Source of the DNA: Candidatus Altimarinota bacterium
Lineage (GTDB): Bacteria > Patescibacteriota > Gracilibacteria > BD1-5 > UBA2023
Length of the DNA stretch: 34,952 nt
Assembly (NCBI GenBank): GCA_008015855.1
Contig: SSGK01000012.1
Location: 1-34,952, forward strand
Direction of reading: 5' to 3'
Position numbers and translations under genes: made by a program. The notes beneath the pieces are model-generated. The model saw only the letters and a list, made by a program, of their open reading frames with translations. It was not told the DNA's origin and did no database searches. This document shows positions 1 through 34,952 of this stretch, piece after piece (positions within the stretch are counted from its first letter, which is position 1; every line of letters begins with the position of its first letter).

Positions 1-2085
1 AATTCAATGAGTGGTCTCTGTATTAATAATATGTGTCTTGCTGACTGGACTGATTTGAATAATGTTGTAAAAAGTCGATGAACGGCTCATTATCTTGCAA
101 AGTTTGATAGTGGTGGATATATTGGTGACTCTTCTCTTTATGAAACAGGTGCTCAATTATGGATTCAGGATATCAATGAAATTATCAATGATTGGTGAAG
201 TTCACCAGTAAATCGTGGTGCTATTACTATTGCCAACTATTCTGCCTGACCAGCAACAAGTGGAACAAATCCTCTTCTAACCCTTCGCGATAAATCAGAT
301 AATAAAACATGTTGAATTTGGCTTGGCGTTTGAAAAATCCAATCAAACTGTACTTGGGATGGTTGAGCAGCATCTACCACAACGATTCAGAATAATGTTG
401 TAAAATATGATGATACTGTTGGTACCATGACGGGATCGGCACTCTATAGTGTAGGAAATCAGATCTGAATCAACACAGCAACTCCAACCGCAGGATATGC
501 TCTTGATATATCAGGATCCACTCGAGTTACTGGTAATATCGTTGCCTGAGCTGCTAATTCATATGATCTCTGATGATCAGCTATTGCACAAAGATTCCGA
601 AATCTCTACGTAGGAACATGAATGATATATAACACAGGAATCATTGCATCTACTGCATGAACTCGTCTTCTTGTAGGTACATGAAATACAGGATCATGAG
701 CATATAAGGCTGATATATATGGCTGATATGTGAATTCATCATCTGGTTATTGTATTAATGGTAACTGTGTAGCAAGTTGGACTGGAACATCTATGGGGCC
801 ATGGACATTCAATGGAACAACGAGTGTTTATCCAAATCAGACAACTTGGAATGTTGCTCTATGAGCATCCACCGTAACAGCGGGGTATAGGCTCGATATT
901 AATGGAAACACTCGTTCTGTTGGTAATATTATAGCATCCACCAATAATACATATGATTTAGGGTCAACACTCTCATATTGGAATAATATATACGTAAGAA
1001 CAGCAAATATCTCTAGTAGTCTTTGTTTGAATGGAAACTGTATTTCAAATTGGACAGGTATATCAGCGTGACCTTGGTCAATTTCAGGATCAGTTGTTTA
1101 TAATAATACAGGAGCAAGTGTTGCTATAGGGAAAACAACAATCTGATCAGGGGTATATAAATTGGATATTGCGGGAGGATATGCAAATGTTTCAAGTGGT
1201 ATATGTATTAATAATTCATGTTTGAATTCTTGGTCAGCTATCTTAAGTGTACTTCAGGGTTCTGGAAACTATCTTCCAAAGTGGAATGCTGCAGGTACTG
1301 CCATTGTTCCATCTCGTTTAAAAGATGATGGGGTTGATATCTCTATTGCCACAGGGTCTCTTCAATATGTAAGTATTACTCCTGCAAACAGTAGTCAATA
1401 TAGTCAAGTATTGGTTTCAAGTGGGTGAATACTTAAGCAGTGACTTACTTCTCGAGAAAAGCTTCGCATATTTGCATATTCTAATTATTGACCAAATAAT
1501 GATAATTCGACTCGTCAAAGATTATGTCTCGATACATCATCGGATACTACAAATTGTCGTCCTGGATGAGTTTCTGCTATAACAAATGTACCAAATTTTA
1601 ATATCATTGATACAAAGTCTTATACTGGTTGAATAGGTGAATATATTCCTTCAAATGGTACAAGACCAGGATACTTTATATCATACTTTACATGAACATA
1701 TTTAGTGGTTACTAGTTATACATTTACTTCAAATTCAATGACTACTGCAGATCTTGGATGTAATGTTTTTCCATATTATAGCTTATATAACAATGTTGGG
1801 TCACTTCCAAATCTTGCTCGTTTTGATGCAACCATGCCAGATGCGCATTTTACGATTGATTCCTCTAGTGTTATTAGTAATGTAGTGTCTTCTACTAATC
1901 TTCCAATTCCTACACAGAAAACCACCCGTGTTTGATCTCAATTTACATCAAATGTATTTATGACTCCTGGACAAGTGCTTTTGATGACTATATGAGTTCA
2001 GTCTTGTGCTTCTCGTGCAGATAGGGATATGTCACTAGTAATTAATCTTCAAAAGAAAATGACATTAAGTGTTGCTGAGTTGTAA
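1..2085 (+). CDS. 3' part of a gene whose 5' end lies outside the window (694 codons + TAA). Repeat-rich, Cys-loop, fibre-like secreted or surface protein of unknown function. Read with UGA=Gly.
   Basis: Phase 1 is open from the window edge to TAA 2083-2085 once TGA is sense. Every standard-code break I checked is TGA (e.g. 79-81, 196-198, 1426-1428, 1933-1935). There are four copies of C-[IL]-N-[NG]-x-C-[LVI]-x-x-W-[TS] (19-51, 751-783, 1024-1056, 1204-1236). These are interleaved with recurring G-Y-x-L-D-I-x-G..G-N-I-[IV]-A..Y-D-L-G..W/F-x-N-[IL]-Y-V segments. Composition is rich in G/S/T/N. A strong hairpin follows immediately. Confidence 0.7.
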
Positions 2086-2086
2086 T

Positions 2087-2121
2087 AATAAATAAGACTT
2101 CTTAAGGAAGTCTTATTTATT
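2087..2121. terminator. Perfect 15-bp-stem hairpin right after the stop of the first CDS, between the convergent CDS and tRNA.
   Basis: aataaataagacttc (2087-2101), loop ttaag, gaagtcttatttatt (2107-2121). The arms are exact reverse complements with T-rich flanks. Confidence 0.6.
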
Positions 2122-2130
2122 ATTATTTCC

Positions 2131-2175
2131 AAAAAGTAAAAATCCTCTTTATTTTTTATGAATAGAGAGGATTTT
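2131..2175 (-). terminator. Rho-independent terminator downstream of tRNA-Lys.
   Basis: Stem aaaatcctct (2139-2148) pairs with agaggatttt (2166-2175). On the minus strand the hairpin is followed by TTTTTACTTTTT. Confidence 0.5.
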
Positions 2176-2190
2176 ATTGTATGTTATATG

Positions 2191-2266
2191 TGGTGGGATT
2201 GGCGGGGCTCGAACCCGCGACCTTGGCCTTAAAAGGGCCCTGCTCTACCAACTGAGCTACAATCCC
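2191..2266 (-). tRNA. tRNA-Lys (anticodon UUU), 76 nt, CCA encoded.
   Basis: The reverse complement folds as a cloverleaf: GGGATTG-TA-GCTC-AGTTGGTA-GAGC-A-GGGCC-CTTTTAA-GGCCA-AGGTC-GCGGG-TTCGAGC-CCCGC-CAATCCC-A-CCA. This gives a 7-bp acceptor stem, GTTCGA T-loop, U33 and anticodon TTT. The only imperfection is one G-A mismatch at the top of the anticodon stem. Confidence 0.93.
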
Positions 2267-2292
2267 ATAGGTGTTCTTTATAACGCGAGGGT

Positions 2293-2320
2293 ATCATATA
2301 AAAAAAATAGAATTTGTCGA
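2293..2320 (-). promoter_or_regulatory. Candidate sigma70-type promoter for tRNA-Lys.
   Basis: The minus strand reads TCGACA (2320-2315), a 16-nt spacer, then TATGAT (2298-2293). This lies about 27 nt upstream of the mature tRNA 5' end. Pattern match only. Confidence 0.3.
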
Positions 2321-2402
2321 ATTTTTTTTCATATTTTCCCTGTTTTTCCCTTTGAAAAAAAGAAAAAACGCGTATTATCACAGTAATGTTTTTTCTATTA
2401 TT

Positions 2403-5400
2403 ATGGTTGAATTTGCTTATTCTCGAATTCAGAAAATACTATCATGAATTCTTATGTTTTTGATAGTATTTACTCAAACCTTTCATGTTGTTTGGTTTCA
2501 ATGAGTATCAGCTTATGCTTCTGACTATCGTGATATAGTTTCGATTTTTGTCGACAAAGAAACGTATGATGAATTTTCTTCTCAAATTCGTTGATATGCT
2601 CGTAATATTCAATCCTACCTATGATCCACACGGGTGGTAATATTTCCAGTTCAAGAAACCATTTCACCCTTTGCTATTGCATCACTTAATGAGAAACTGT
2701 ATTATGAATGAGATGGGGATGGGATTTCTCGCCTGGTTGGAACGATTCTTATTTGAAACATTCCACTTCCTGTGGTTCATAGAGAAGGGAAGACTTTCGT
2801 AAGTGTTTTCCCGTATACCGATTTTACAGATAAGAGCTTTTTATTTAATTCAGAAAAAGGATATTATGAATACTCTAATCAGTATAGGGAAACTTCAGAT
2901 GCTGATATTTGGCATTGAGTTATAAATCCAAATACAGGAAATAAATCAACAGATTCAACCGCATTACAAACCTTTTTTGATAAATCCGAAGACTTTTATG
3001 CTCAATCTGGAAAATACTCTGATGCAAATACCCTCGATGATCCTTATGTATTCTATTATGATGGATACCACGAACAGCTTGCTACCAAATTGAATGGATG
3101 GAAGTCGTATGAGCTTTACATGAAGCATCAAGAGGATATTTCATATAAACGTTGGAATAAAGATCTTGCCAATCAGATTACAAAAGAACAAGGGAATGTT
3201 GGAACAGAGGAAATGTGAGATATGGTTGATGGAATTGTTTCCCAACTTGAACAAACAGCTTCTTGATCTGATCAATTAGAAAGTGCTCTTGAAATTCAAG
3301 ATGCTTTTAATAGTTGAGGTTTGATGGAAAAGCAAGAGAATCAAATGAATAATGTTCCCGACATTAAATCAAAGGAAATTATTCAAAATCTTGCCAAGCC
3401 ATTTCATGAGATTATTAATTCTCAAACCATAGGGACTGAGTTAAAAAATGTGCATAATGCAGGAAGATATACTTCTGGTACAACCGTTCGTGCCGATATA
3501 GTTCCTCTTATGGTGACAAAACAAGATGAGATAATGAATAGAATATTGAAAGATGCAAATGGAGTTTTGGAATCTTTTACTGACAATCTTGTTGTGACAT
3601 GAGGATTATCAAGAAAAATTCCTGTGCTTACTCAGATTCAATTTGATCGTCAAGAATTTACTCATTGGTTGTATGGATATCAGCCAATGGATCCGCCTTT
3701 TGTTGAATTAAAGACTACAGCAAATTATCAGTGAAATAATATTGCAAACTACCAGGGGTATTATATAGGTGCTGATCATACTGGGAGTTACATATATAAA
3801 AATTATTTTTTCTGAAAGGAGGGATCCGATATAGTTAGTACGACCGGGTGTACTATATTGCGATGAAGTTCTCGTCTCGTTGAGGCAAATAGAGCATACA
3901 ATACACTTTTAGCTTTATCTGATGTTACTTTATTGCAAGATGATACCCAAGCACTTGCATGAGTAAATGGTATTCGTGATGCCTGTTTTCAACCAAATTC
4001 AAATGGTGCTGATATACGCACAATGACATATTGGGGATGAAATACTCCTCTTAACATAGATAATGCAAAAACAGCAGAAACGGGTTATATGGAGTTATGA
4101 GATCATAGATATGATTCTTTTGTTCGTCCGATTCTTGATATTGCCTGAATGCGTCAGGTTGATTCAGGATCATCGCTCATGGATACATATCATAACTCAC
4201 CAGCACGTTGTCTTGCTCACGATGATCTTATTTTACAACCAAGGACAAAACAGATATGTAATAATTGGTTTTGGGATTCGTGATGTACTCCACCATATTG
4301 ATCAGTAGCTGATAGTTCTTGGGATGAATGGAATAAATGAAGTTCATTTAATAAAAGACTTGCAATTAATGCGGATGATCTAAGATTTTCATGTTCCTCA
4401 ACGGTTAATAAAAAGACATCAAATTCATTTGAAGAATACTACCAGACTATCCCAACAGCAACCTGTACTGTTGGGAATTTGAGGCTTGATAATAGTCTCG
4501 TGCTTTCCGGTTCAAATCCATGTATTCAATATATATACTCGGGTTCTGAAAATGGAGGGTATCAAATTATATCAACCTTTGATCCTGTTACAAAGAAGCC
4601 TATAACACCAATGGATCCACTTCTTTGAATTTTTTATGATTACTATAGGATAGATGATTCACGATATTTAAATATTGATTACAAGTCAATCCAGTCGGCA
4701 ATGTTTCATAAGTCCCCAACGGATGAAGAATTATCAGTAGCTGAAGCTACTCAAATGACACCATGACTTGCTATTGATCGCGATAGGTATGTTTCATTTA
4801 TTAGTGCTGCTTGAAATGAGCAGAAAATAGTATATCCAAACCTTTTTCGTATTGAATTGACTGACGAAGAAATTGTGGATATCGAAAAGGCAAGACTAGC
4901 AATCAAGAAGTTCTTAGATATATCAAGCACTGAGGTAAATGCCTTGATTGCAAGTGAGATTCCTCCAACCTCAGGCATTGCAAAAGATATCTATAATCTT
5001 TTTAAAAATGGCGCATATCCAACACAGAATATTGATTATTATGCTGTTCTTGAAAAAGATCCACAAGTTCTAAAAACTGTTATTCAAAACGTTATTTGGA
5101 ATAATTTGAAAAATGCGACTGCAAAGTACTCATTCATCTTTGAGCATTATATTGATGAAAAAGGGAAGGATAAAACGCTCTTGCCACTTCATAGAACGGA
5201 TTATGAAATAAGCTATATGGGATGACTTGGGAACGCTCAATGAATGAGAGTTCTCCTTGATCCAGAATGAACGGAAGAAGTAATTCCGCCATATATTGCC
5301 GATATTATGAAGGCATATGATACTGGAATTAATGCAATTGATGCTGCAAATGTTACAGAAGATACCTATAATGATAATGGAAATAAAACAGATGACCAAT

Positions 5401-8400
5401 GTGGGTCGCCTGATGGAGTAAATATTTTCTTTGAATGGTTTCCGGCTATTATATGTTGGATTCAAACACTCCTTCCTCCTAAAATTCTTGCCGGATCTTG
5501 TACACCATCTACGATTGGTCAAGATTCAAATAATGATACTACGAATCGTGTAACTCCTCCTACCATTACAGGTACATGATATCAATGAACTCTCGCTGAT
5601 TTTTTCAATGGTGGTAGTATGAAAGTAGTATTTGATAAGAATACTATTAATACAAATGATACCGTTACTATAACATCATTTTTTGAAACATCTTCTGGTT
5701 CCATCGTTGATTTTGATAATACGTATGATGTTGTTGGAACTATTACGAAGATTGAAGCGTATAAGGAAGATGGTTCTTTCGGTGTGGTATATCAGAGCGG
5801 CATGGATCAATCTATTCTCCGAAAATATGTCAGCACCGAATCGGTACTAACTTCTTGATTTACCAATGGAGAAGCTCAATTTTATATTGGAAGTCGATCA
5901 GAGGATGCAAATATCACATTTCAAACAGCAGTAAGAAGATATGATCCTGAGTGAAATCCTCTCCTTGATGTTACCAGTAGTCCAACAATATTTAAGATTC
6001 GAGCTGGTAATATTAATGTAACGGTTCAGAGTGGATCTGAAGTCGTTTCAAGTGTTCCAGTTCAATCGAATCCAAATCTTTCACTCGTTTTTGATGCAAT
6101 ATCTGCGAGCGGAGCAAGAAAAGAATCAGTATTTCCTTATACATATTCATTTATTGATGATGTTTCAGAAGAAATTATAGCAACAGGAACCGTAAGTGAA
6201 GATATTGTTCCATTTCCAACATCCATCTTTTCTCGTATTGGTGTTTATAAAATTGAGGTACAAGATGGTCGTTGAGTCTACGGTGTTTCTAGTTTTTCAG
6301 TGAATCCTTGAGAACTTCATGAGATTCGTGTAGCAGCATCTTCCAATTATCTGGTTCAATGAGAAAATACACCCGTTGTTATTCAACTCATAGATGCGTA
6401 TGGTAATCTTACTTCTGGAGAATTGTATGATCTTGAGATCTCGGTAACCAATGGGTATATAGATGATTGAGAGGGGGAAAGAGATACGGTAACTCGTTCC
6501 ATTTTAGATGGAGCACTTGTTATTAATGTTGGAACAAAAAATTCATGATCAGCAATTGTAAGTGTTCGAGAAAAAAATTCAGGAAAGACATGACAATCGA
6601 GTATACAATCTATTCCATTTGCAAAGTGAAAGATTACTCTCGGGAGTACTCCAATTGCAGGATGAACTGGTGTAACCGTAGCTATTACAGTGGTTGATCA
6701 AAATAATCAAAAAATATCATGATTTAATGGGGTAGCATTATTTGATTTCCCTGGGTCATCTGGGTTATTTTCTGGAAGTACGGTACAGATTATAAATTGA
6801 GAAGCATCTACACGATTCCTTCCTGGAACAGTGGCTTCAAGTGGTATACAGCCTCAAGTGCAAATTCCTGGAATTAAAAATATAGAAGTTCCTTCGATTG
6901 TAATTGAACCAAACGATCCAATGTATATTGAGATGCGTACCACTGGAAATGAGGCTTTTGAGGCAAAACAGTGAAATACCTATGAAGTAGTTGCATCATT
7001 ACGAGATAGATATGGAAATAAAGTAATATCTCCAAGAAATAATGCCCAGGTTTCATTCCTTATACCTGATGATTATGCTCGTTATCTCCGATTTGAAAAT
7101 GGGTCAACGGGTCAGGTTGTTCCATTATGAGCAAGCTGAACTGCTCGTGCTACTATTGTTTCGACTGGTATTCCGGGGACTTCCTATATTTTAGGTGAGG
7201 TTACTCCAGGACTTACCTCTGATATACAAGTCACTGATGGTAATGAAACAACCATTATATCGGCACTCTCAAATGCAGTGATTCGATTGCAAACCTATTA
7301 TGTCTTTAATAAAGAGAAGGTTGATAGAATTGATTATAATTCTCTCTATACGGTTCTATTATGAGCTCCCTATTGAGATACAACCATTGAACAATATCTT
7401 GGATGAGAATTGCTTTTTAGTGAATGATCTCGTTGATTGGCAGTTACAACTCTTTCCGATGATCCATATATTCGTGAGACAGTTTGATCATTTCATCCAA
7501 ATGGTGGCTTTAAATGACAACTCAGCACATCTCCTGAAGTTTCCGTAACAGCTCATACAGAGATGACGAATAATGGAATTTCCGTTGTATTCTATGATGA
7601 AACATACAAGGAAAATATTGCAAGAATTACTCCTCGTTTTCTTGGTACACCAAAAATGATTTCATGTGGATTCGCATCTGGAACAATTAAGGATGACTGT
7701 ACTCTTCCAGACGTATCGCATATAGCAATTCATTCACTTGATTCTTCTGTTGTTTCAAATGTAAATGGAAATGTGCTTACACTTTCTCAGAGTGGATCTG
7801 CGGATGTATTCCTTGCTATTGATTCTGGGGGAAGGGTAACGAAACATCCTCTTGTAAATCTTATTCTCGATGAATCTCATGAAACGAATGGTATGTATTT
7901 TCGTATTGAATTTTCATGAACACCAATAGCGGAACTTATTTATTCAACCATATGAGATGGATCTATTTATAGTCCAGATACAGGTGCTACAACCGATGGA
8001 ATTATAGTAGAAGAAACATCTTCTCGCTATACAACAAGGCATGCATTCAATGGGGCAACTACGAAAGATTCAAAGTGAGTTGAGATTTATAAAAAAGTCT
8101 CACCATTTGATAAACCAGAAATTGACGATGTTTTTTCTCGACCAGGTGCTCTTGCATGAGTTGAGCAATTTACCGGAAATGAATGACTTGGATGGAAAGG
8201 AATGAACAAGATGCTCCTCTCATTTACGTCTGGTGATACTACCGGGGAAGCTTCTAAGTTCTTTGCAAGCTATCTTACTATTAACCTCTGAGATCCAGTT
8301 GTTCATATTGATCCAAAGAAGGTTATAAAACACAACCTTGATAGAACCATTGGAAAAACCATTCTTATGGAGACACGATGAGTTATTACTGGATATAAAG

Positions 8401-15071: not shown

Positions 15072-15189
15072 AACAGAATAGGGCTCCATACTTGCAAAAA
15101 ATATTTTCTATTGTTTTTTAGAAGTTTTTTGCTATTATGCACGAACAAACTTTTCATTTTTATTAAAGAAATATTATCAATTTATTCGT

Positions 15190-17587: not shown

Positions 17588-17621
17588 AATACTCTTTTCA
17601 AGTTAAAACATGAAAGAGATT

Positions 17622-17650: not shown

Positions 17651-17689
17651 ACACTACTTTTTTAATTTTAATTTAAATCTATTTTTCAG

Positions 17690-19634
<1,945 letters not shown>

Positions 19635-19636
<2 letters not shown>

Positions 19637-19666
19637 AAAAAATCAGGATTAATCCTGATTTTTTTT
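19635..19666. terminator. Perfect 32-nt palindrome serving as a bidirectional terminator between convergent ftsH and mutY.
   Basis: The sequence is aaaaaaaatcaggatt|aatcctgatttttttt. An A-run and a T-run flank the stem. The ftsH stop (19634-19636) and the mutY stop (19649-19651) both lie at or inside it. Confidence 0.75.
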
Positions 19667-20683
19667 ATATTGCTTTAAGATGTTTTGAATCTCTTTATCT
19701 TTTCTAAATCTTGCAAATTTGTGAGTTCCGGTCTGTATTTGAGCGTTACACGCGATATAAGGGTCCCCTTTATTATCGAGCCATTTATGATGTACCGGAC
19801 GAACTGATACCTCGAGTTCATATGTTTCCCGAAAATAGGATTGTACTCATTTTCGAATATCTGTTCATTCGAGGGGATTGAGAATAAAGGGTGTGTATTT
19901 TTCTATGTCTTTAGAAAAATATTCTCTATGATTTTCATGAAGAATAACGACAACTTTTGCATCCTGGAGTGGGAAATATATTTTTTTAACTTCTGCCATC
20001 TCTTCTTTTATTCATTCTGTTGTATAGAATAGGCTCTCCTTTAAAGGATATTCCTCCCAATTTATAAGGGTTTTATTGTTTACATCGATGATACTTGAAA
20101 AATCCATAAATGCCCCATTGATAATGGGTATATAGATTTGATTTTCCTTCTTTTTAAAAAATTGTTGAAAATCATAAGTAATCCCTTGCTTTATTTCCTT
20201 TGTTAATTTATTAAATCTGCTTCCAGTATAGTAGCGTGCAAATATTTTTTCTATATTGGTATCCCATGCAATTACTGGATTTCCTAATGCAAATGAGAGA
20301 ATAGCATTGGCTGTATATTCTCAGATTCATGGAAGTTTTATGAGTTCATCTTTTGTTTTTGGGAACACTCCATGGAACTCTTCTGATATAATTTTTGCAG
20401 TTTTTAGTAAATTTCTTGCACGAGAATAATAACCAAGTCATTGATAATAAGGAAAAAACTCATCATAGGATGCTTTTGCAAGGCAATGAATATTCGGATA
20501 TGCTTGAGTAATTCAGTTAAAGTATTCTATAACGCGTGACACCTGCGTTTGTTGGAGAAAGATTTCAGATAACCAAACATAATAACATCGTTGTTCTTCT
20601 GAATAATGTTCTAATCATCGCCAAGGAAGTGTTTTTCTTCCATTTATTTCATACCAGGAGAGAATTGTTTGAAATGGGAACAT
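19649..20683 (-). CDS. mutY: A/G-specific adenine DNA glycosylase MutY (344 aa) that lacks the four Fe-S cluster cysteines.
   Basis: Minus-strand translation gives ILSWYEINGRKTLPWR, catalytic-Glu motif VWLSEIFLQQTQV, YQGLGYYSRARNL, helix-hairpin-helix LPGIGEYTANAI (20321-20335, both Gly being TGA), catalytic-Asp motif AWDTNIEKIF, and a C-terminal MutT-like domain. I checked every in-frame triplet and found no TAA or TAG, and 8 TGA. An alternative in-frame ATG at 20731 would add 16 aa. Confidence 0.9.
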
Positions 20684-20766
20684 GAGGATAAAATTATTGA
20701 TTGGTTTGATTGATTTAATATTTTTTTTCATACAATGGTGAGTATATAATTTCTTCCCATTGGTAT

Positions 20767-23700
20767 ATGAAAAAAATATTTCAGTACTTTCTTGTTTTTA
20801 TTTGATTTATATCTGTAATTACATTAGGGGTGTATGCTCTTGATGTTCAGTCAAAGACGCTTACAACCGTTGTATCAGACGGTTATTATAGGGAAGGAAG
20901 CTCTTGGCGTTTTATAGTTTCTGAACCAAGACCATTTCTTGGGATTATTCCAGTTCAGGTAACAAAGAATTGTACTGATTTAAAGGATGTTGCATGTGCA
21001 TTACTCGATATTGATGCTATTCAAAAGAGTATAAAAATCAATTGACTTATTCAGAAGGAGCTCCCTAAGGGGATATCTGCTTCCCTTACGAATACCTATA
21101 CATTTATTTTGAATATTTTCCCTGAAGCAAATATTCGTGATGGTGATGAAATTCATGTAGATGTTGGAATTTATAACTCTCTTCAGAAAACAGGATACAA
21201 ATTAGCCCAAGATATAATTCTTGTGTACCGTAAAAATGATCCGATTCTTACAATTGATTCCATTTGAATACCGAAAAACAAAGAATATAGAGTAGTTGCT
21301 GAAGGTTTTCGTTCAACCAATATCCTTACAACGATAGATTTTTACACTCTACAAAGAAATGACCTTGGCCAGTGTAGTTTGGAATCTTCCAGGGATTTTC
21401 AGAATGCTTCTTTTGAAGTAACCGAGGCATTAAATGAAGGAATGAAATCAACTGCATACATTAAGATTCAATCACCAATTCAATATAATGCAGAATGTCT
21501 ATTTGCTTCAATAAATGGTGAAATGGCATTGGTGGAGAATATGACGATACCCGAGTTTACTGTATCTTGAGAGGTGTGAGTTCAGCTCTCCCCAGAACTT
21601 GATATGAAAACAGAGGTGACATTTTCATTCTCATCCCCCTTATTTATCGAGAGTGGTTCGGTAAATTCAGAAGAATTTATTGATAATCGAACGAAGGCAA
21701 AAGTTGAATTTTTGAAGCATCTTTCAATTTCTTCTTGAATTGAAGCAAAGATAGATGATTTGGTATTATATCCTAAGAAGGCAATACTTCTTTTACCACT
21801 TTTAGCTGATAAAAAATATTCATTTTCTCTTGATGAATTGGAAGATATATATGGTCAGATTACTTCTCTGGATTTTCCTGTGCAAGTAAAAAGAGAACCG
21901 TATCTTTCTGTAAAGACAAAAGAGCGATATCATACCTTCTCAAAACTGCAAAATCCTGAGTTCCAATTATATTCTTACTGAATAGGAACAGGATCTCAGG
22001 AGATTTCTGTTTGTCGAGTTTCTTTGGATAACTTTTCTCGTTTGGAACAGATATATGATGTTGGGAAGAAGGGTGATTCATGAATACTCTACAGTATTCT
22101 TTCTTCATCTTGATCAGGGGTATATGGTTGTGAAAAAACAATTCTTTCTATTCCAGAAGGAAGTTATTCATATAAATTCACGCTTCAAGATGTTCTAAAA
22201 AAGAAGGAAGTTGGTCAATATGTTCTCTTCTTTAGTAAGATCGAGGATATTACAAAGGCTCAAAACTTTGTAAAACCTATTCTATTCTCCATTTTAGATA
22301 CGAATATTGTCATGAAAGTATCACAAGAAGGTGATTCACTCTTTCTTGTAACGGATATCTATACCTGAAAACCGATGAAGGATCAGGAGATAATGGTATA
22401 TCAAAATATATCTCGTTCCGTTGAGAGAACGTGGAATTCTCAAAAAGGAATGTATGATCTAAAATATATTCCACTTGCGGAAAAAAGATTTTCGACATGA
22501 GTTTATATCTGAAAAACCAATAATGAAGGGTTTCTTCAGGTGAATCTAAAAAATTATATAAAAGATGGTGATCCATATAGTTTAACATTTGAAGATTGGT
22601 GGGGATCTCAAGAAGATGGATCATATCGTTCATTTGTGGCCGTTGTTCGATCTGACTCTCATTTTTGATTTGTAGTAAGTACCTGGAATGATGGAATCGC
22701 TCCTTGGAATTTTTGATTTGATACATCGGACACTCGTTATTATTATGGATCACTCCAGCGTTATAATGCATATATACATACAGATAGAATGCTGTATCTT
22801 CCTGGTGAAGAGGTATACATCCATGGAATATTGCGTGAAAATAATGGAAAATTAGTGGTTCCAAAGAATAAGAATTATACCGTTACGGTTACTGATTCAT
22901 TCTGAAAAACCCTTTCTTCTCAGGCTGTTCAGATAAATGAATTTGGAAGTTTCTCTGTAAAATCTTCATTACCAAAGGAGGCTGATATGGGAACTTATAC
23001 CGTTCAGCTGATTGGTGAAACTCCTGATACTTCTTATATTCCAGGGGGATATACTAACTTTCAGGTGGAAATTTTTAAAAATCCAACATTTCAAATTACG
23101 GTTGATGCTGAGTGAGTTGAACTCGATAATGGGATTATAACTGTTAAGAAAGAGGCAAATAAAGATGTTTCAAATTGGTGGTATGAGTCTGTTTACAATG
23201 GTGCATTTACTCTCAACGCAAAAGTGCTTGCACGATACTATAATGGAGCAATATTAAAGAATGCCAATTTTTCATATAAGATTTTAAGAAAAGAGTATTG
23301 GGGTGATAATTATTGGGCGGAATGTTTCTGGTGATGTTATTACGAATGAAATACAGAATTTTATACCGAATGAGTTTGAAGACTTGATGGGGATGGCTAT
23401 GGAATAATACGAACTCCTGTAGATTTTACTTCGTTTTATGCAGACTATAAATATATTATCGAGGTAACGGTAGTTGATCCACTTACCGGCGAGACTATTA
23501 CGAGCGCCTGAAATCTTATTGTAAAACTTCCCGCTGAAATAAAGGAATACAATCCAGCGAGTATTGCAAATGTTGTTCCTGATAGGAAATTTATTTCAGC
23601 TTGAGATGTATTTCGTGCTTGAATACGATTTAATGATACCCCATGGAAGCTTGGCTATAACAATAAATATGAATATAAGATTGTTGCAAAGCAGTATACA

Positions 23701-26700: not shown

Positions 26701-26712
26701 TCGTGAACTTTT

Positions 26713-26751
26713 TTGACATCTTTTTGAAACCAATTAGTATGTATCTATAAC
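26713..26751 (+). promoter_or_regulatory. Candidate promoter(s) for the nrdR-priA' unit.
   Basis: One option is TTGACA (26713-26718), a 16-nt spacer and TAGTAT (26735-26740). The other is TTGAAA (26724-26729), a 16-nt spacer and TATAAC (26746-26751). Both lie just upstream of ATG 26761. Pattern match only. Confidence 0.35.
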
Positions 26752-26760
26752 TTTTTTTAT

Positions 26761-27207
26761 ATGAAATGTCCAAAGTGTAAAAATCTTGATACAAAGGTAA
26801 TTGATTCTCGTATGACAGAGGATTGAAAGGCAGTAAGAAGAAGACGAGAATGTGAAAAATGCTGAGCTCGTTTTACAACATTTGAACGACTTGAATTCGT
26901 TTCATTTATGGTTACTAAGTCTTCTGGTGAATCGGAACAATATGATCGGACGAAGGTAGTAAATTCTATGATGAAGGCATTGGTAAAGAGAAAATTCAAT
27001 CCAGATAAGATAGAGCAGATAATAAATACCCTTGAAACTGATTGGGCTCAAAACAAACAAGGGATCACTTCAAAGCGAATTGGACGTGATATTCTGCGAA
27101 AGCTTCGAGACTTGGATGAAGTTGCCTTTCTTCGGTATGCATCAATCTATCATAACCATGAAAATGTAGCAGAATTTATTAAATTTCTTGAGGAAGAATT
27201 GTGATAA
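26761..27207 (+). CDS. nrdR: Transcriptional repressor NrdR (zinc ribbon plus ATP-cone).
   Basis: The protein begins [46 protein letters not shown], followed by an ATP-cone-like C-terminal half. Under code 25 the ORF reads through TGA 27202-27204 to TAA 27205-27207. Confidence 0.93.
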
Positions 27208-28205
27208 AACAATCGTCGGATACATTACATCAAACAATCACTATTATTAATCTCTCTAATACAAAACTTCAGGGTGATTATATTTCATATGAGCTTCTGC
27301 AAACCATTACCCAAACAATTGAAAAATGATGAAAGGTTCTCCTTTTTTTCAATAGAAGAGGGGAATATAGGAGCATCTCATGTCCTGATTGTTCGAACCG
27401 ATTATTATGCCCCTATTGTAATATCCCTCTTTCCTATCATTCATTTCCCTCTAAGAAGTGTATTTGTCACCAGTGTAACTATATAGAGCCCTTTCATCCG
27501 ACGTGTAAAAAGTGTGGATCCAATACAATGATTTTCTCTTGAGTTGGTATTCAGAAAATTGAGGAAATTCTTGTTCGTCATTTTCCATGAAAATCTATTC
27601 TCCGAGTAGATTCAGATGCTCTGATACATGATTCTCAGTTACTAAGCTCTATTGATTCTTCTGATATTATTCTCGGAACAACCCTTGCCACCTCCCTTAT
27701 TCATAAGGATATTCAATTGGTTGCAAGTCTTCTCTTTGAAAGTGAATTCTCTATTCCTGAATATACCATAGAAGAAGATGTTTATATACGCGCAAATTTT
27801 TATATTCGACAAGGGATTCCATTTTTTATTCAAACTTTTATACCATCGCATCCCTTATTGGATATGATACTTAATGGAAACTATAAGGAGTATATGAAGT
27901 ATTTAATGAATGAAAGAAAGAGCTTCTGATATCCTCCATTTTGAAAACTTCTTTATATTTGGGTGAAAGATTCAAAAAAAGAGAAGGTCCAAGATATTAT
28001 TTATAAACTCGCCAACAAGCTCGATATTCTTCAGACTGAACATAACTTCTCTCTCTTCTTTTCGTATGATAAGGATATATGGGATCGATATATGGATGAG
28101 TGGCGACAGAAAATTGTTATTAAATGACCTGATGCTGAAAAAATGCTTACTTTTTTCCACTCAGAAATTATTAAAAATCGAAATGTCTTTCTGGAACGAA
28201 AATAA
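27201..28205 (+). CDS. priA: PriA-like protein comprising only the C-terminal half of PriA: helicase lobe 2 remnant, Cys-rich zinc region and C-terminal domain (334 aa). The N-terminal DNA-binding domains and the Walker A/B lobe are absent.
   Basis: VLLFFNRRGEYRSISCPDCSNRLLCPYCNIPLSYHSFPSKKCICHQCNYIEPFHPTCKKCGS matches the PriA CRR. It continues GVGIQKIEEILVRHFP, RVDSD and IILGTTLA. Phase 3 opens only after TAA 27180-27182 and the first usable start is GTG 27201, which overlaps the nrdR end. The stop is TAA 28203-28205. The helicase motif V/VI positions are degenerate (GTTLATSLIHKD; FYIRQG in place of QVAGRAGR). Confidence 0.75.
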
Positions 28206-28231
28206 CAACCTGGTTCGGTTGTTATTTTTTT
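28201..28231. terminator. Bidirectional rho-independent terminator between priA' (+) and the SpoU-family gene (-).
   Basis: aataacaacc (28201-28210), loop tggttc, ggttgttatt (28217-28226), with a T-run extending to 28231. The priA' stop codon lies within the stem. Confidence 0.7.
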
Positions 28232-28288
28232 ATTGTTCTGAGTAACCATCCTGCTTGACCGAGCTGGATACAGAAATGGTATCATAAG

Positions 28289-28774
28289 TTATGATATTTC
28301 TCAATTCTTTTGCCTTGCAAAATATCAAATATAGTACATGACTATTCCAGCAGTCACCGATACATTGAGTGATTGTTTTATTCCCTGCATTGGAAGCTCG
28401 AAAATAACATCCGATAAATCTAATAAATCCTTTGATACTCCGTTTATTTCGTTTCCCATGATGATACAAATATTCTTTGAATTATCCTCAAGGTATTTTT
28501 GAATATTTCCTGTACTTGAAGTAGCTTGTTCGATGCTTATAATGAGAGTACCTTCTTTCTTGAGTGTGCTAATTATTTCTCGAGGGTCCTCATAGTATTC
28601 CCATAGAACAGATTTTTCAGCTCATAGTGCTGTTTTTGCTATTTCTTTTCTCGGGGGAGTTGGAGTATATCCTGTGAGGAATATTTTTTCAAATCAGGCA
28701 CCATCTGCGGTGCGAAATATTGATCCAACGTTATGGAGTGATCGAATATTGTCTAAAAGTATAGAGTATTTCAT
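28289..28774 (-). CDS. SpoU/TrmH-family RNA 2'-O-ribose methyltransferase (161 aa).
   Basis: The minus-strand translation begins [40 protein letters not shown]. It continues AKTALGAEKSVLW, ICIIMGNEINGVS and ELPMQGIKQSLNVSVTAGIVMYYI. These are the SPOUT motifs 1-3. It has 4 in-frame TGA, two of them at typical Gly positions (RTADGAG, TALGAE). The stop is TAA 28289-28291. Confidence 0.85.
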
Positions 28775-28779
28775 GGGAA

Positions 28780-29454
28780 TTAGAGTTGGTATCGAATAGC
28801 TTCCAGCATTGGTTTGATATTTTCCGGAATGGTTTTTGGCATTTTTGCATCCACAATAACATACATATCTCCGGTTTTTCCATGACTGGTCCGTCATTTT
28901 CCTGTTATCTTAAATTTTGTCCCTGGTTTCGTTCCTGATTTAATCTTGAGAGTAAGATGTTTTCAATACACTGTTTTTACAGAAACAGATGTGTCAAAGA
29001 GAAAGTCTAAGAAGGGGATTTCAATGGTCTCTACTACATCAAGGGATTCAGAAACTTCTTCTTGTTTTCCTGTTTTTTGATTGCTTCGTGTATTTCCTTG
29101 AGAAAAAAAGTCGCTAAAATCAAATCCTCCCATTCATTGCGTTCTTCCTGTTCCTCAAAAGATATCTCAAAAATCAAATCCTCCCATCCCACTTCATCCG
29201 AATGGATTTCCTCATCCCATTCATCCAAATGGGTTTCAATCTGCCGATCAGAATTGGTCATAGTTTTTTCGTTTTTTTGAATCCCCCAGTGTTTGATAGG
29301 CTTCATTGATTTCTTTAAATTTCGCTTCAGCTTTTTTATCATCCTTGTTTCTATCAGGATGATATTGCATTGCGAGTTTTTTATAGGCCTTTTTTATATC
29401 TGCTTCACTCGCATTTTTTTCGATTCCAAGTATGGAATAATAGTCTTTTTTCAT
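28780..29454 (-). CDS. J-domain co-chaperone (DnaJ/CbpA-like, 224 aa): J domain, G/F-rich linker and a short C-terminal beta domain, with no zinc-finger domain.
   Basis: The J domain is [60 protein letters not shown]. The G/F region is [48 protein letters not shown]. The C-terminal part is [41 protein letters not shown] checked all in-frame triplets and found 10 TGA and no TAA or TAG before TAA 28780-28782. Confidence 0.85.
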
Positions 29455-29552
29455 GGGAATAATTGATGAATTGAGTTCATATTTTATGAAAAATTTCACA
29501 CCTGTAAAGGGTCTCTATTGATTATTTTTTGTTTTAGATATGATGGATTGTG

Positions 29553-31448
29553 ATGAAAAAAGAAAAAAATGAACATATTGAGAAAATTCTTTCAACACTT
29601 CCCACTTCTCCATGAGTATATCAGATGAAGGATAGCAAAGGAGGTGTTTTATACGTAGGGAAAAGTGTTAATCTTAAATCGAGAGTTTCCTCTTATTTTC
29701 GTGAAAATGCTGATTTGAATCCAGCAAAAAAACAAATGGTTACGAAGGTGAGGGATATTGAGATTATTATCTGCCAGACAGAAGTAGAAGCGCTGGTACT
29801 TGAGACCAATCTTATAAAACATCTTTCTCCAAAATATAATATTCTTATGAAGGATGATAAGAATCTCACCTATATAAAAATTACTTCATGAATTATTCCA
29901 GAGATTCTAAAGTCTCGTAAAAAAATCAATGATGGTTGAGTATACTACTGACCCTATACACAATGAGCTGATATACATGAGAATATTAAAAATCTTAAGC
30001 GAATATTTAAGATTCGAAATTGCAAGCTTTTATTTCAAAAGCAATGAAAAGATTTTTCTATCTTTTGAGCAGCGAAGAAGGGTATTCCGTGTATGGATTA
30101 TTATATTGGAATTTGCCCTGGTCCTTGTCAGTGAACGGATGATACCATTCAGGAGCATGCCGATAATGTTATGAACCTCAGAAAGTTTCTTGATGGAGGA
30201 AATAAAGAAATAATTTCTCGATTGGAATCAAAAATGAGGGATTATGCGAAAAATCTTGAGTTCGAAAAGGCGGGGAAACTAAAAAGTCAGATAGATGCTA
30301 TGAAAGTTCTTTCAGAAAGACAGATAGCTCGTGATGTTCTCCCTTGAAATCATGATATACTGGCGATTTTACAGAATTATGGAAAGGTATTTGTTTGACT
30401 CTTGCAGATTCGTTCTGGAAAAATGATTGGGGTCTTTCGAACATCGATTGAATTGAATGGGGAAGAATATGATAGAATTATTGTTCAGTTTCTTGCGAGG
30501 CAATACATGGAAGGTGAAACAGATTATCCGGATAATCTGTTTATCACTGAAGATATTCAGGATCCATCCTTAATTGCATTCTTTCATGATAAAAATATTA
30601 CACTCAAATCAGCGGATATTTGAGTTCAAAAGGAACTCTATGATTTTACGATGAATCAGGTTCGAGAATATGCATATAAATCAGAACTTCAAAGCTTAGA
30701 ACAAAAGACTCTGACACGAGAGCATATGACCTCGATTCTAACTGAGCTATGATACGTTGTTCCAAAAAAATGAGAAATTCATTTTGAATGCTACGATATA
30801 TCTCATACTCATGGGCAGTTTACTATCGCCTCACGTGTTCATATGTTAAATGGAAAGATGGAGAATTCTCTCTATAGAAAGTATAAAATTAAGACACTTG
30901 CCGCCTGAGATATTGATGACTTTGCTTCTCATAAGGAGGTAATGGAACGAAGAACTATAGAGGGCTTAACCGAATGAAATTTTCCAAATCTTATCCTGAT
31001 TGATGGAGGAAAATGACAACTTTCATCCGCACTCCAATGAGCAAAAGAATGAGCTTATAAATATTCACTGGAGCAGTGACTTGATATTAATGAGGTTATG
31101 CTTCGTCTTCCTTCCTTTGCGAGCATTGCGAAACGGGAAGAAGAAATATTTGTTCCTCATAAAAAGGAATCTATTCTTTTTGGAAAATGAACTCCTGAAT
31201 TAATGATACTTCAGAAACTTCGAGATGAATCTCATCGATTTGCAATTACCGCTAACCGTTCATCGAGAACAAAAGCCATGAAGAAAAATATTCTGGAAGA
31301 AATCCCAGGTAGATGACCAATAACAAGAAAAAAACTCCTTCGAATTGCAGGAAGTATCGAGAATCTGTCTTCTCTTTCATATGAAGAGATTATGAAGGTG
31401 TGCACTGCATCTCAATATATCTCCCTTCGCGAACATTGAATTATTTAA
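29553..31448 (+). CDS. uvrC: Excinuclease ABC subunit C (UvrC, 631 aa).
   Basis: GIY-YIG domain: [34 protein letters not shown] (P-G-V-Y at 29610-29621, with Gly encoded by TGA). Cys motif: CMDYYIGICPGPC. UVR domain: AKNLEFEKAGKLKSQIDAM. Endonuclease domain: ECYDISHTHGQ, LILIDGGKGQL, IAKREEEIF and LRDESHRFAI. C-terminal HhH: IPGRGPITRKKLL. Phase 3 is continuous to TAA 31446-31448. Confidence 0.93.
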
Positions 31449-31459
31449 TCTCCATTTTT

Positions 31460-32419
31460 ATGTATATCCTTGCTTTTGAAACATCATGTGATGATACATC
31501 CGTAGCATTGTTTCAAGATACTACCTGTATAGCTCTTTCTACGCGAACACAGATTGAACATGAAATCACTTGAGGGGTAGTACCAGAGGTGGCTGCACGC
31601 CTCCATGCAAATGCTATTTTTCCATGTATTGAGGATGTTGTAAGGGATGCAGGAATATGATTGGATTGAATTGATTATATCGCATGCACAAAACAACCAG
31701 GACTTCTTCCATCACTTTTAACTGGTATGACGGTTGCTAAGACGCTCGCAAATTCTCTCGACAAACCGCTTATTTGGGTAGACCATATTGAGTGACATAT
31801 TTTTGCTAATCTACTTGAGAGAAGTGAAAGTGAGATACCATTTCCGAGTATTGTCCTTACAGTATCTGGAGGACACAATGAACTCTATATTTGGAAGTCA
31901 TTGTTTGATATGGAGAAAATCTGAGAAACCCTTGATGATGCTGCATGAGAAGCCTTTGATAAGGTTGCAAAGATGCTCGGGTGCTGATTCCCTGGTGGTC
32001 CTATTATTGCGAAGCTTGCACAATCAGAGACAACAGGCTATGAATGATTATTTCCAATTGTTACATTAGAAAAAGATTCCCTTAATTTTTCATTCTCATG
32101 ATTGAAAACTGCCGTAAAACGAGAAGTAGATAAGAAAATATATAGTGATTCAAAGATTGCCTTTGAGTTTGAAGAAGCAGTGATTCGAACACTGGTAAAG
32201 AAGCTTTTTTTGGCAGCAGAAAAACATAACATCAAAACTATTTGTCTTGCTGGATGAGTGAGTGCCAATAAAAAATTAAAAGATTGTATCTCTCATGAGG
32301 CAGAAAAACGAGGTATGCAATTTATTTCCCCAAAAAAGCCCGTATATTCTCAAGACAATGCTGCTATGATTGGAATCCGAGCATATTATGGAATTGTATC
32401 AGGGAGAGTGGACAATTAG
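31460..32419 (+). CDS. tsaD: tRNA N6-adenosine threonylcarbamoyltransferase TsaD (Kae1/Gcp family, 319 aa).
   Basis: Motifs present are ILAFETSCDDTSVAL, GGVVPEVAARLH (31571-), TKQPGLLPSLLTG, VDHIEGHIFA, LTVSGGHNELY, GETLDDAAGEAFDKVAKMLG, FPGGP, FSFSGLKTA, LAGGVSANKKL and DNAAMIG. Many of these invariant Gly residues are encoded by TGA. The stop is TAG 32417-32419. Confidence 0.95.
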
Positions 32420-32493
32420 GTCCAGTCAAGGGTTTTTCATTTGATTTCCATGTATTTTCTCATAAGCTCTTCGTGTATTTTTTAAATTATTAT

Positions 32494-33408
32494 ATGGAAA
32501 AAAATTCTTCTCTTGAACAAGTTCTTGTTGTTCTTGTGAGTATATCTCTTGTTTTTAATGCTGTCTCGCTTTATTTCCTTACGGGATATTGATTTGGAGA
32601 GAAACTTCAATGATCTGAAACAAATGGTGTTGGTATTAAGCGTGCTGTTATGGATGCAGTTCTTGAATTAGAATATGCAAAAGTTGGTGGAAAAGAGAAT
32701 TTTGAACTTATGCAAAAGGCACAAAAATTTTCATTCCAAGATCAGCTTCCACAAGTAAAGCAGTATATAACTTCTCGTGAAAAGGGTGGGTCAGCTCCAA
32801 CTACTACAACAGAAACAACTTCCAATGAAGTAAAAACCCTTTCTCAGGAAGAAATTGCACTTCTTAAGAAAGATGCAGTGATTGAAGGGGATAAAAATGC
32901 AGAAGTGACCCTTATTGAATATTCAGATATGGAATGTCCATTCTGTATTCGTCAGCATAATGAAGAAAAAGCGATTGAAAATGTTCGAGCAAAGTATGGA
33001 AATAAGGTAAATAGTACATTTAAACACAATCGATGAGTAAATCATCCTGGAACTGAGAAGAAGGCAGTTGCGGTTCTTTGTGCAAAGACCGCTGGAAATG
33101 ATTCTGCATATGTAAAACTCTATAAGAGCATCTATTCAGGTTCTACTCTTCGAAGCGTCGTTGATGTAGCTCAACTTCCAGAACTTGCAAAAACAGCAGG
33201 AGTTGATACAAAAAAGTGGCAAGAATGTTATGATAATAAGGCAACTCTTCCAATATTTGATATGCAAACACAGGAAGCAAACAAGTTTAATCTTGGAGGA
33301 ACTCCTGGAACACTCGTTATCAATAATAAGACTGGAAAATATACAACGATCGAAGGTGCTTATCCAACTTCTCAATTCGAATCAGCAATTGAATCCGTAT
33401 TAAAATAA
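32494..33408 (+). CDS. Membrane-anchored DsbA/BdbD-like thiol:disulfide oxidoreductase (304 aa).
   Basis: The N-terminal TM segment is VLVVLVSISLVFNAVSLYFL and is followed by a Thr-rich linker APTTTTETTS. The thioredoxin-fold motif is VTLIEYSDMECPFCIRQH (CPFC at 32935-32946), and the cis-Pro loop is GGTPGTLVIN. The stop is TAA 33406-33408. Confidence 0.8.
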
Positions 33409-33417
33409 TAATACATA

Positions 33418-33444
33418 AAAAGCCGAGAACATCTCGGCTTTTTT
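33418..33444 (+). terminator. Rho-independent terminator after the dsbA-like gene.
   Basis: aaaagccgag (33418-33427), loop aacat, ctcggctttt (33433-33442), running into a T-tract. Confidence 0.75.
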
Positions 33445-33445
33445 C

Positions 33446-33474
33446 TTGACTTATTTCCGTAGTTTTTGTAATAT
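33446..33474 (+). promoter_or_regulatory. Candidate promoter for the exonuclease gene.
   Basis: TTGACT (33446-33451), a 17-nt spacer ending in TG, then TAATAT (33469-33474). This lies about 30 nt upstream of ATG 33506. Pattern match only. Confidence 0.4.
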
Positions 33475-33505
33475 AAGCCATATATTTATATACATTACAT
33501 AGTTT

Positions 33506-34186
33506 ATGGATACACCTATAGCCACAGAAAATGCGCGATACCTCCTTATTGATTTAGAGATGACAGGACTCAATCCTTTTATCCACGGTGTTATTGAATT
33601 TGGGGCAATGGTTATGAATGACTCTCTTGAGAGTCTTGATGAATGGAGAGTGGTATTGTGTCCTCCGGAAGAAGTTCAGATTGACCCAAGTGCGCTTGAA
33701 TACAACGGATTTACACTTGATCAAATATCTACCGGAATGGCCTATGAAGAATTCTGTAATCACTTTGAATTATTTTTGACGACACACTTTCCAAACGATC
33801 AAAAGCCAATATTCGTAGGGCAGTATATTGCTGCAGATATTTCATTTCTTATGAGTATCTTCTATCGGGCAAATCGTAATGATCTCGTAATGCGCCTCTG
33901 AAATGATATTATTGATACAAAATCAATTGCGAATCAGGTAAATATGATTGCTCGTTACAAGAAAATGAATATTCCATTTAAGAGTACGAGTCTCTCAAAG
34001 CCAGGTGGACTCGGAGAAGTGCTCAATATTGGAACATATAAGGCACATACAGCAATTGGAGATATCAAGGCAACACGCATTGTACTTAAGAAATTATTGA
34101 GCCTTGGTGCAGAAGAACGATTAACTATGGATGCTTCCGATGATGTAAATGATACCACTCCAAATGTATGACCAACGGTTGCATAA
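33506..34186 (+). CDS. DEDDh-type 3'-5' exonuclease (DnaQ / RNase T-like fold, 226 aa).
   Basis: Exo I is LLIDLEMTGL, Exo II is FVGQYIAADISFL and Exo III is HTAIGDIKAT (H-x4-D). The two track fragments (33506, 33944) share phase 2 and are joined by TGA 33899-33901. The ORF reads through TGA 34169-34171 to TAA 34184-34186. Confidence 0.8.
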
Positions 34187-34195
34187 TTTATCACT

Positions 34196-34224
34196 AAAAA
34201 ATCCCCAGTAAATGGGGATTTTTT
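34196..34224. terminator. Bidirectional terminator between the exonuclease gene (+) and rplL (-).
   Basis: aaaaaatcccca (34196-34207), loop gtaaa, tggggatttttt (34213-34224). The arms are perfect, with an A-run and a T-run on either side. Confidence 0.75.
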
Positions 34225-34243
34225 TAATTGATACAAAGTAGAA

Positions 34244-34621
34244 TTACTTGAGTTCAATAGAAGCTCCTGATTCTTCAAGTTGCTTCTTAATCTTGTCAGC
34301 TTCATCCTTGTTAACACCCTTCTTGATATCACCACCATTGTCAGCAAGAGCCTTAGCTTCAGCAAGACCAAGTCCAGTGATTTCACGAATTACCTTAATA
34401 ACGGCAATCTTTTGAGCACCAGCAGATGTCATAACAACATCGAAGCTAGTCTTCTCATCATCTCCACCAGCAGCTCCAACAGCAGCAGCAACAGCTACAG
34501 GAGCAGCAGCAGAAACACCAAATTTTTCTTCCATTGCAGAAACAAGATCTGCAAGCTCTACGATAGTAAGTCCTTCAACAAGGTCCATAACCTTTTGAGC
34601 ATTTGAGCTGAGTTCAGCCAT
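34244..34621 (-). CDS. rplL: 50S ribosomal protein L7/L12.
   Basis: The 125-aa ORF is intact even under the standard code. It reads [41 protein letters not shown], an Ala-rich hinge, then [30 protein letters not shown]. Confidence 0.97.
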
Positions 34622-34740
34622 AATTATAAAAAATAGAAAATAAAAACAATTTTAGGGTCTTATTATAAGACACAATCGAGAGGGTTTAACCAGCTCGTAA
34701 TTCTCCATCTCTCAAATGAAATGGAGAACATACAAAATGA

Positions 34741-34952
34741 TTATTCAGCAGATGTTTCTTTCTTGAGATCACCAACCTTTGTAAGAGACTTTCCTTCAAG
34801 TTCTTTCTTTGCACCATCAAGAAAACGTGCAAATCCAGAAAGTGGAGACATCATAGAACCAAGAAGCTTTGCAAGGAGAACCTCACGAGAAGGGAGTCCA
34901 GCAAGTTTTGTTGTTTCTTCTGCATCCATAATACGTCCATCGAGGTAACCTC
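34741..34952 (-). CDS. rplJ: 50S ribosomal protein L10, 3' part (5' end outside the window).
   Basis: The C-terminal L10 sequence is GYLDGRIMDAEETTKLAGLPSREVLLAKLLGSMMSPLSGFARFLDGA. It lies immediately upstream of rplL in the canonical rplJL order. The stop is TAA 34741-34743. Confidence 0.9.
   Translation of the reverse strand, partial: GYLDGRIMDAEETTKLAGLPSREVLLAKLLGSMMSPLSGFARFLDGAKKELEGKSLTKVGDLKKETSAE

Follow-up and report, generated by a model that had tools for sequence, protein, structure and literature searches.

UGA read as glycine on a 35-kb contig of an uncultured Patescibacteria bacterium

Introduction

Contig SSGK01000012.1 was analysed over its entire length of 34,952 bp (hereafter the window; 35.3% GC). 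The question raised by this locus is the meaning of the many TGA codons that interrupt its reading frames, which could stand for a stop, for tryptophan or for glycine. A reading made by a model from the letters, with no database searches (hereafter the sequence-only reading), had proposed that UGA is decoded as glycine throughout (genetic code 25). The analysis described here showed that UGA is a sense codon for glycine, not for tryptophan, and that UGG stays a tryptophan codon. The window is best read (probability about 0.96) as a chromosomal contig of an uncultured member of the Patescibacteria, or Candidate Phyla Radiation (CPR), from the code-25 clade, in which UGA would be an ordinary glycine codon and UAA and UAG the only stops.

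The recoded CPR clade is made up of BD1-5 (Gracilibacteria) and the Absconditabacteria(les), and forms the GTDB class JAEDAM01. Code 25 was reportedly described for Gracilibacteria by Rinke et al. in 2013 and for Absconditabacteria (SR1) by Campbell et al. in the same year. In the clade, code 25 is found with a tRNA-Gly of anticodon UCA and with loss of release factor 2 (RF2) (PMC8629427; preprint 10.64898/2026.05.24.727570). In a proteomic study of BD1-5, the unique peptides comprised 97 specific to the glycine translation, 3 to the tryptophan translation and none to a stop (PMC4032931). Dedicated code predictors exist (preprint 10.64898/2026.05.24.727570).

Results

TGA is a sense codon

With TGA counted as a stop (code 11), the longest stop-to-stop open reading frame (ORF) on any strand was 249 amino acids; with TAA and TAG as the only stops it was 4,266 amino acids. 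This comparison had been proposed as a check in the sequence-only reading and came out in favor of TGA as sense, code 4 giving the same ORFs as code 25. As a control, TAG or TAA was freed instead of TGA, and the longest ORFs were then just 249 and 322 amino acids, respectively. Once TGA was taken as sense, 17 densely packed genes, which cover 96.7% of the contig, and one tRNA gene were found (Table 1). Within the 17 genes (~11,270 codons) TGA occurs in frame 291 times, TAA and TAG never, and TGA, with 33% of the glycine codons, is the commonest glycine codon of the window. Of the 17 stops, 14 are TAA, 3 are TAG and none is TGA, in agreement with the count made from the letters. The 16 called genes of the close relative L089, 8 of which lie past the window's end, likewise stop at TAA or TAG only.

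The warning that standard-code calling would yield short fragments and spurious antisense ORFs was borne out. Under code 11 the ftsH gene falls into 20 pieces (the longest of 80 amino acids) and the gene for a giant protein of 4,222 amino acids into 116. The 46 code-11 ORFs of at least 100 amino acids comprise 23 in the true frame, 17 antisense and 6 out of frame. Long antisense ORFs arise under the recoded table also: a plus-strand ORF of 149 amino acids (34187–34636, TGA read as sense) is a spurious antisense of the L7/L12 gene.

In four genes a TGA lies within five codons of the TAA stop: nrdR (27199–27207), where it immediately precedes the TAA, uvrC (31437–31448), the spoU-family gene (28289–28303) and the exonuclease gene (34169–34186). 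These codons were considered as relics of ancestral TGA stops, an idea that was dropped as not significant (4 observed, ~2 expected by chance).

UGA encodes glycine

The identity of the amino acid was examined by four tests, described here as independent and none of them relying on prior translations; all agreed on glycine. For the comparison with solved structures, the proteins were masked with X at each TGA and aligned to structures of proteins from organisms with the standard code, and the facing residue was noted for every X. Glycine was opposite 12 of the 15 aligned TGAs in FtsH and 6 of 10 in TsaD (both with E. coli structures), 3 of 4 in Der (B. subtilis), 3 of 5 in MutY (E. coli) and 3 of 9 in UvrC (structures of individual UvrC domains). 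Summed over these alignments, glycine stood opposite about 27 of 43 TGAs and tryptophan opposite none, the cases with another residue all being at variable positions. Two further TGAs were opposite glycine in the PriA alignment.

The motifs named in the sequence-only reading were all confirmed, with the TGAs in frame. These are the Walker A motif of FtsH (GILLQ-TGA-PPGT-TGA-KT, TGAs at 18392 and 18407), the G3 motif of Der (D-S-G-TGA, 15370), the helix-hairpin-helix (HHH) of MutY on the minus strand (LP-TGA-I-TGA, 20327 and 20321), the PGVY motif of UvrC (P-TGA-VYQM, 29613), three motifs of TsaD (T-TGA-GVVPE, IE-TGA-H and DDAA-TGA-EAF) and the Gly/Phe-rich linker of the DnaJ-like protein, with 8 TGAs between 29134 and 29250. 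The structure alignments of FtsH, TsaD, Der, MutY, UvrC and PriA place TGA on glycine in unrelated protein families.

For the column test, FtsH was scanned in one genome per GTDB species. At least 80 loci were obtained, and the 77 that were free of in-frame TGA in the FtsH core were used, as raw DNA, as the standard-code set. Seven of the 19 TGAs of ftsH (at 18284, 18392, 18407, 18605, 18881, 19001 and 19232) fall in columns that are glycine in 77 of 77 sequences, and an eighth (19358) in a column that is glycine in 68 of 77; in a further 4 TGA columns glycine is the commonest residue. The tally of TGA against conserved columns that the sequence-only reading had asked for therefore gave glycine in 8 of the 8 TGA-holding columns with a conservation of 80% or more, where glycine makes up ~14% of conserved columns overall (p ~1e-7). 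Over all FtsH columns TGA was opposite glycine in 56% of cases, GGA in 69% and GGT in 66%. When all codons were treated in the same way no other codon was consistently shifted, and TGA acted like a GGN codon.

The window was also compared codon for codon with three relatives that carry in-frame TGAs in ftsH (L001, L002 and L004). Sites where the TGA of the window has a GGN codon or TGA opposite it numbered 19 of 23 for L001, 14 of 18 for L004 and 39 of 86 for L002; the L002 count includes a giant protein that is 30% identical. TGG was not among the listed counterparts of TGA in the three relatives, and the TGG codons of the window paired mainly with TGG.

Finally, Pfam bit scores were compared for the same genes translated with TGA as glycine or as tryptophan. 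Glycine was better or equal in every TGA-containing domain; the gain was 40.5 bits over three domains of FtsH, 30.4 bits for TsaD, 8.6 bits for DnaJ_C and about 7 bits for UvrC, and the HHH domain of MutY scored 41.8 bits with glycine and was not reported with tryptophan. In composition, glycine makes up 7.8% of residues if TGA is included and 5.1% if it is left out, and tryptophan would make up 3.5% under code 4. Taken with the structures, the FtsH columns and the codon pairs, these results show that TGA means glycine, and the proposal of code 25 throughout the window is upheld by them.

Tryptophan itself is encoded by TGG. The sequence-only reading had named the WNDGIAPW motif of the alpha-2-macroglobulin (A2M) family protein (at 22684), and both of its tryptophans are indeed TGG, as are those of LPW and VWLSE in MutY, of NKWD in Der and at the conserved tryptophan positions of FtsH. 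No TGA was opposite tryptophan in any conserved column, and the conserved tryptophan positions checked were all TGG.

Relatives and phylogenetic placement

Among the matches listed, the closest FtsH sequences were those of 'Candidatus Gracilibacteria bacterium DOLZORAL124_35_19' (66% identical), a Patescibacteria metagenome-assembled genome (MAG; 65%) and an uncultured MAG (53%); in-frame TGAs are present in each of the three. DOLZORAL124_35_19, a MAG, is arranged like the window from the giant protein through Der and the TraB-like protein to FtsH, and the 30%-identical ortholog of the giant protein adjoins Der in the Gracilibacteria MAG L002. At least eight assemblies, made independently and from different samples, contain the locus in the same order and with the same gene-call lengths; SRR33777081 and ERZ22681072 are examples of samples in which the organism occurs. 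In one relative, with a tsaD 95% identical in nucleotide sequence, the seven shared genes compared, from nrdR to the exonuclease gene, have as many TGAs as in the window. In relatives the locus continues past the window's end with genes for a penicillin-binding protein, Gmk, SmpB, RsmB and AlaRS.

CGA and CGG are still arginine codons in the window. CGA, with 115 codons (102 per 10,000), is a major arginine codon, and in FtsH it falls on columns that are arginine in 77 of 77 sequences. CGG, with 11 codons, is on arginine or lysine positions in FtsH, NrdR and UvrC. Conserved sites with CGA or CGG include residues 229, 342 and 358 of FtsH, 528, 557 and 562 of UvrC, and 125 of NrdR. Neither codon occurs in the ftsH gene of L004 (29% GC), a recoded relative that is further removed. 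For Absconditabacteria, Shulgina and Eddy predicted that CGA and CGG, both rare there (CGA below 37 per 10,000 codons), mean tryptophan (PMC8629427). Since both codons fall on conserved arginine or lysine positions in the window, that pattern does not apply to it.

The placement in Absconditabacteria or Gracilibacteria that had been drawn from the code is supported, and is narrowed by the syntenic Gracilibacteria MAG and by the use of CGA and CGG for arginine: within the code-25 clade, the organism likely belongs with Gracilibacteria/BD1-5. At just 66% FtsH identity to the nearest listed species representative, it would be a distinct lineage within Gracilibacteria.

Use of TGA in ribosomal protein genes and along the GC range

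TGA is absent from the 20 glycine codons of the two ribosomal protein genes of the window, L7/L12 and L10, and from all 26 if the full-length L10 gene of a close relative (L089:12785-13833) is used (p ~3e-5). In the other genes of the window TGA accounts for 14% to 50% of the glycine codons. Among the recoded relatives, TGA makes up 9% of the ftsH glycine codons in L001 (43% GC), 7% in L002 (38% GC), 32% in the window (35% GC) and 61% in L004 (29% GC). The share of TGA thus rises as GC falls, which fits an AT-biased drift from GGA to TGA.

Gene content of the window

The genes of the window are listed in Table 1. Pfam, applied to translations that had X in place of TGA, confirmed the protein identities, and the matches run across the TGAs; the spans obtained in this way were 3–189 of 191 for Peptidase_M41, 1–130 of 131 for AAA and 5–263 of 264 for TsaD. 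The precomputed annotations of sister contigs agree with these identities.

Table 1. Features of the window when TGA is read as a sense codon. Positions are those of the forward strand.
Feature	Start	End	Strand	In-frame TGAs	Remarks
Cys/Gly/Asn-repeat ORF, probably a surface protein	1	2085	+	26	694 amino acids, 5'-truncated; TAA stop
tRNA-Lys(UUU)	2191	2266	-		sole RNA gene of the window (ARAGORN, Rfam); not a UGA decoder
Giant ORF	2403	15071	+	115	4,222 amino acids; TAG stop
GTPase Der/EngA	15190	16593	+	4	one TGA in the G3 motif; Pfam
TraB/GumN-like membrane protein	16556	17587	+	11	Pfam
FtsH	17690	19636	+	19	Pfam, alignments
MutY-like adenine glycosylase	19649	20731	-	8	two TGAs in the HHH
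Alpha-2-macroglobulin family protein	20767	26700	+	47	1,977 amino acids; TAG stop
NrdR	26761	27207	+	3	gene ends ...TTG TGA TAA
PriA C-terminal-half-like ORF	27201	28205	+	7	334 amino acids; GTG start overlaps the end of nrdR
SpoU-family RNA methyltransferase	28289	28774	-	4	Pfam
Short DnaJ-like protein	28780	29454	-	10	8 TGAs in the Gly/Phe-rich linker
UvrC	29553	31448	+	22	one TGA in P-TGA-VY
TsaD	31460	32419	+	10	TGAs on glycines of GGVVPE, EGH, AAGEAF, FSGLKT and AGGVSAN
DsbA/thioredoxin-like protein	32494	33408	+	3	
RNase T/DEDD exonuclease-like protein	33506	34186	+	2	
Ribosomal protein L7/L12	34244	34621	-	0	12 Gly codons
Ribosomal protein L10, C-terminal part	34741	34950	-	0	8 Gly codons; gene runs off the contig

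The truncated ORF at the start of the window had no Pfam match. A cysteine motif recurs in it (GLCINNMCLADWT, GYCINGNCVASWTG, SLCLNGNCISNWTG, GICINNSCLNSWS), with Gly/Thr/Asn-rich spacers between the copies, and it probably encodes a repeat-containing surface protein. The giant protein has a hydrophobic segment at its N-terminus and a Pro/Leu-rich repeat (PNLPNLPDLPSLP); its Pfam matches, to FG-GAP and DUF11, were weak and sub-threshold.

The ORF that follows nrdR aligns to residues ~353–620 of PriA only, that is, to helicase lobe 2, the Cys-rich zinc region and the C-terminal domain. The N-terminal half of PriA (3' DNA-binding domain and the lobe with Walker A and B) was not found adjoining it. 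Since the 334-amino acid gene is called identically in three sister contigs, this is not a local truncation.

Discussion

Other meanings of the in-frame TGAs

A tryptophan reading of UGA (code 4), known from Mycoplasmatales and certain insect endosymbionts, would leave the intact ORFs exactly as they are. It also finds the FtsH and TsaD of this contig stored as tryptophan translations in the public protein collection, and tryptophan as the commonest residue in one variable FtsH column. Against this stand the absence of tryptophan opposite any of the ~43 structure-aligned TGAs, the glycine in all eight conserved TGA columns of FtsH, and the GGN codons of the relatives at TGA sites, with TGG missing from the listed counterparts. 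Tryptophan moreover costs 3 to 30 Pfam bits per domain and loses the HHH domain of MutY; the tryptophan content would reach 3.5%, and a Walker A motif reading WPPGTWKT would be non-functional. Code 4 is accordingly extremely unlikely. Decay is harder still to reconcile with the data. If the code were the standard one and the TGAs were true stops in pseudogenized or mis-assembled sequence, or sequencing errors, the fragments seen under code 11 would be accounted for, but decay would not produce 291 in-frame TGAs and not one TAA or TAG, nor place TGAs exactly on invariant glycine positions. The gene-call lengths are equal in the independent assemblies, and the TGA counts are equal in the relative with the 95%-identical tsaD; the chance that this explanation holds is practically negligible. 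Selenocysteine at UGA, which would call for a few UGAs at Cys/Sec positions, each with a selenocysteine insertion sequence (SECIS) element, was also considered and rejected, the 291 sites being spread over all families and aligning to glycine, not to cysteine; Rfam found nothing but the tRNA in the window.

The housekeeping content of the window (FtsH, Der, TsaD, UvrC, MutY, NrdR, L7/L12 and L10), together with the synteny with a Gracilibacteria MAG chromosome, speaks for a cellular code-25 chromosome. Phages with code 25 or with code 4 are known, some of them of this clade (PMC10746230), but no phage hallmark genes were found in the window, and an origin from a phage, prophage or other mobile element with a recoded stop is exceedingly improbable. 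More subtle is the possibility that UGA is ambiguous, being mostly glycine with some termination, owing to residual RF2-like activity or to readthrough that depends on context. The lack of TGA in L7/L12 and L10 would be expected if decoding were costly or leaky, and the four genes with a TGA in the last five codons before TAA could be taken in the same sense. That number does not differ significantly from the ~2 expected by chance, however, and every TGA-bearing gene continues to an in-frame TAA or TAG. Appreciable termination would prevent the synthesis of a 4,222-amino acid protein that has 115 TGAs, and the BD1-5 proteomics gave no stop-specific peptides (PMC4032931). We therefore hold ambiguous decoding to be very unlikely.

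Points that weigh against code 25

Several observations weigh against the reading of the window as part of a code-25 chromosome, or against its placement. No tRNA(UCA) was found on the window, where ARAGORN and Rfam give tRNA-Lys(UUU) only. ARAGORN found only tRNA-Arg and tRNA-Leu in the recoded relatives L001, L002 and L004, and the extended contigs of the same species gave no tRNA(UCA) either (ARAGORN for L081, L082, L089 and L090; Rfam for L082 and L089), the region around smpB included. Neither prfA nor prfB was found on the 35-kb contig or at the related loci examined, which says nothing of the whole genome. About a third of the TGAs face non-glycine residues in distant homologs; all of these are at variable positions, and GGN codons behave alike. 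One TGA of FtsH, that of residue 138, is in a transmembrane column of low conservation in which tryptophan is the commonest residue (18 of 77), the relatives having glycine or serine there. The separation of Gracilibacteria from Absconditabacteria, for its part, was made from one named relative and the usage of CGA and CGG.

Proposed decoding and the cost of TGA

By analogy with the clade, UGA would be read by a dedicated tRNA-Gly with anticodon UCA and the identity elements G1:C72, C2:G71, G3:C70 and U73. RF2 would have been lost, leaving nothing to compete for UGA. GGA codons may then have gone over to TGA by AT-biased mutation, once the two codons had turned synonymous.

The deficit of TGA in the ribosomal protein genes and the trend with GC suggest that mutation pressure feeds TGA into the genome and that selection excludes it at high expression. 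It is conceivable, although we put this forward tentatively and consider it somewhat less probable than its opposite, that the reassignment is complete yet costly, mutation driving GGA to TGA and translational selection removing UGA from genes with high expression. With two genes and four genomes, the sample is too small to establish this. If it were true, tRNA-Gly(UCA) would decode UGA more slowly or less accurately than the GGN codons are decoded, for example through a wobble of U34 that also reaches UGG.

Comparison with known systems and practical meaning

The window shows no qualitative difference from the code 25 of Gracilibacteria (BD1-5), with which it shares UGA as glycine, UAA and UAG as sole stops, a CPR background and arginine at CGA and CGG; TGA here supplies a third of the glycines. 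GC content is low in both, at 33% for the BD1-5 bin of Hanke et al. 2014 and 35% for the window (PMC4032931). Absconditabacteria are alike in reading UGA as glycine. Vampirococcus lugosii, of that group, has giant membrane proteins of up to 4,163 amino acids in which DUF11 and integrin-type domains occur, as well as two large A2M proteins of ~1,900–2,400 amino acids (PMC8080830). The giant protein and the A2M protein of the window resemble these. The Absconditabacteria differ in the predicted use of CGA and CGG for tryptophan, and in a CGA frequency that is well under that of the window (PMC8629427). The code 4 systems (Mycoplasmatales, Hodgkinia, Zinderia and others) also use UGA as sense, in an AT-rich reduced genome in which loss of RF2 is expected, and their code returns the same ORFs; they differ in having tryptophan at UGA, where the window has glycine.

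Code 25 is already known for this clade, and the contig is one more well-documented instance of it, with nothing new on the evolution of the genetic code. The value of the finding is practical, for annotation, and not conceptual. Under table 11 the window is annotated as fragments, half of the longer ORFs being out of frame or antisense; table 4 gives the right ORFs, with tryptophan at about 290 glycine positions. In the public protein collection the FtsH (17690–19636) and the TsaD (31460–32419) are held only in the form in which TGA is translated as tryptophan, and the Walker A motif of FtsH reads WPPGTWKT there. The glycine versions of these two and of six other looked-up genes were absent from the collection, the tryptophan form having been tested for FtsH and TsaD only. 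For Gracilibacteria and their recoded relatives, such tryptophan-translated entries impair searches for homologs, the prediction of structures and the detection of motifs.

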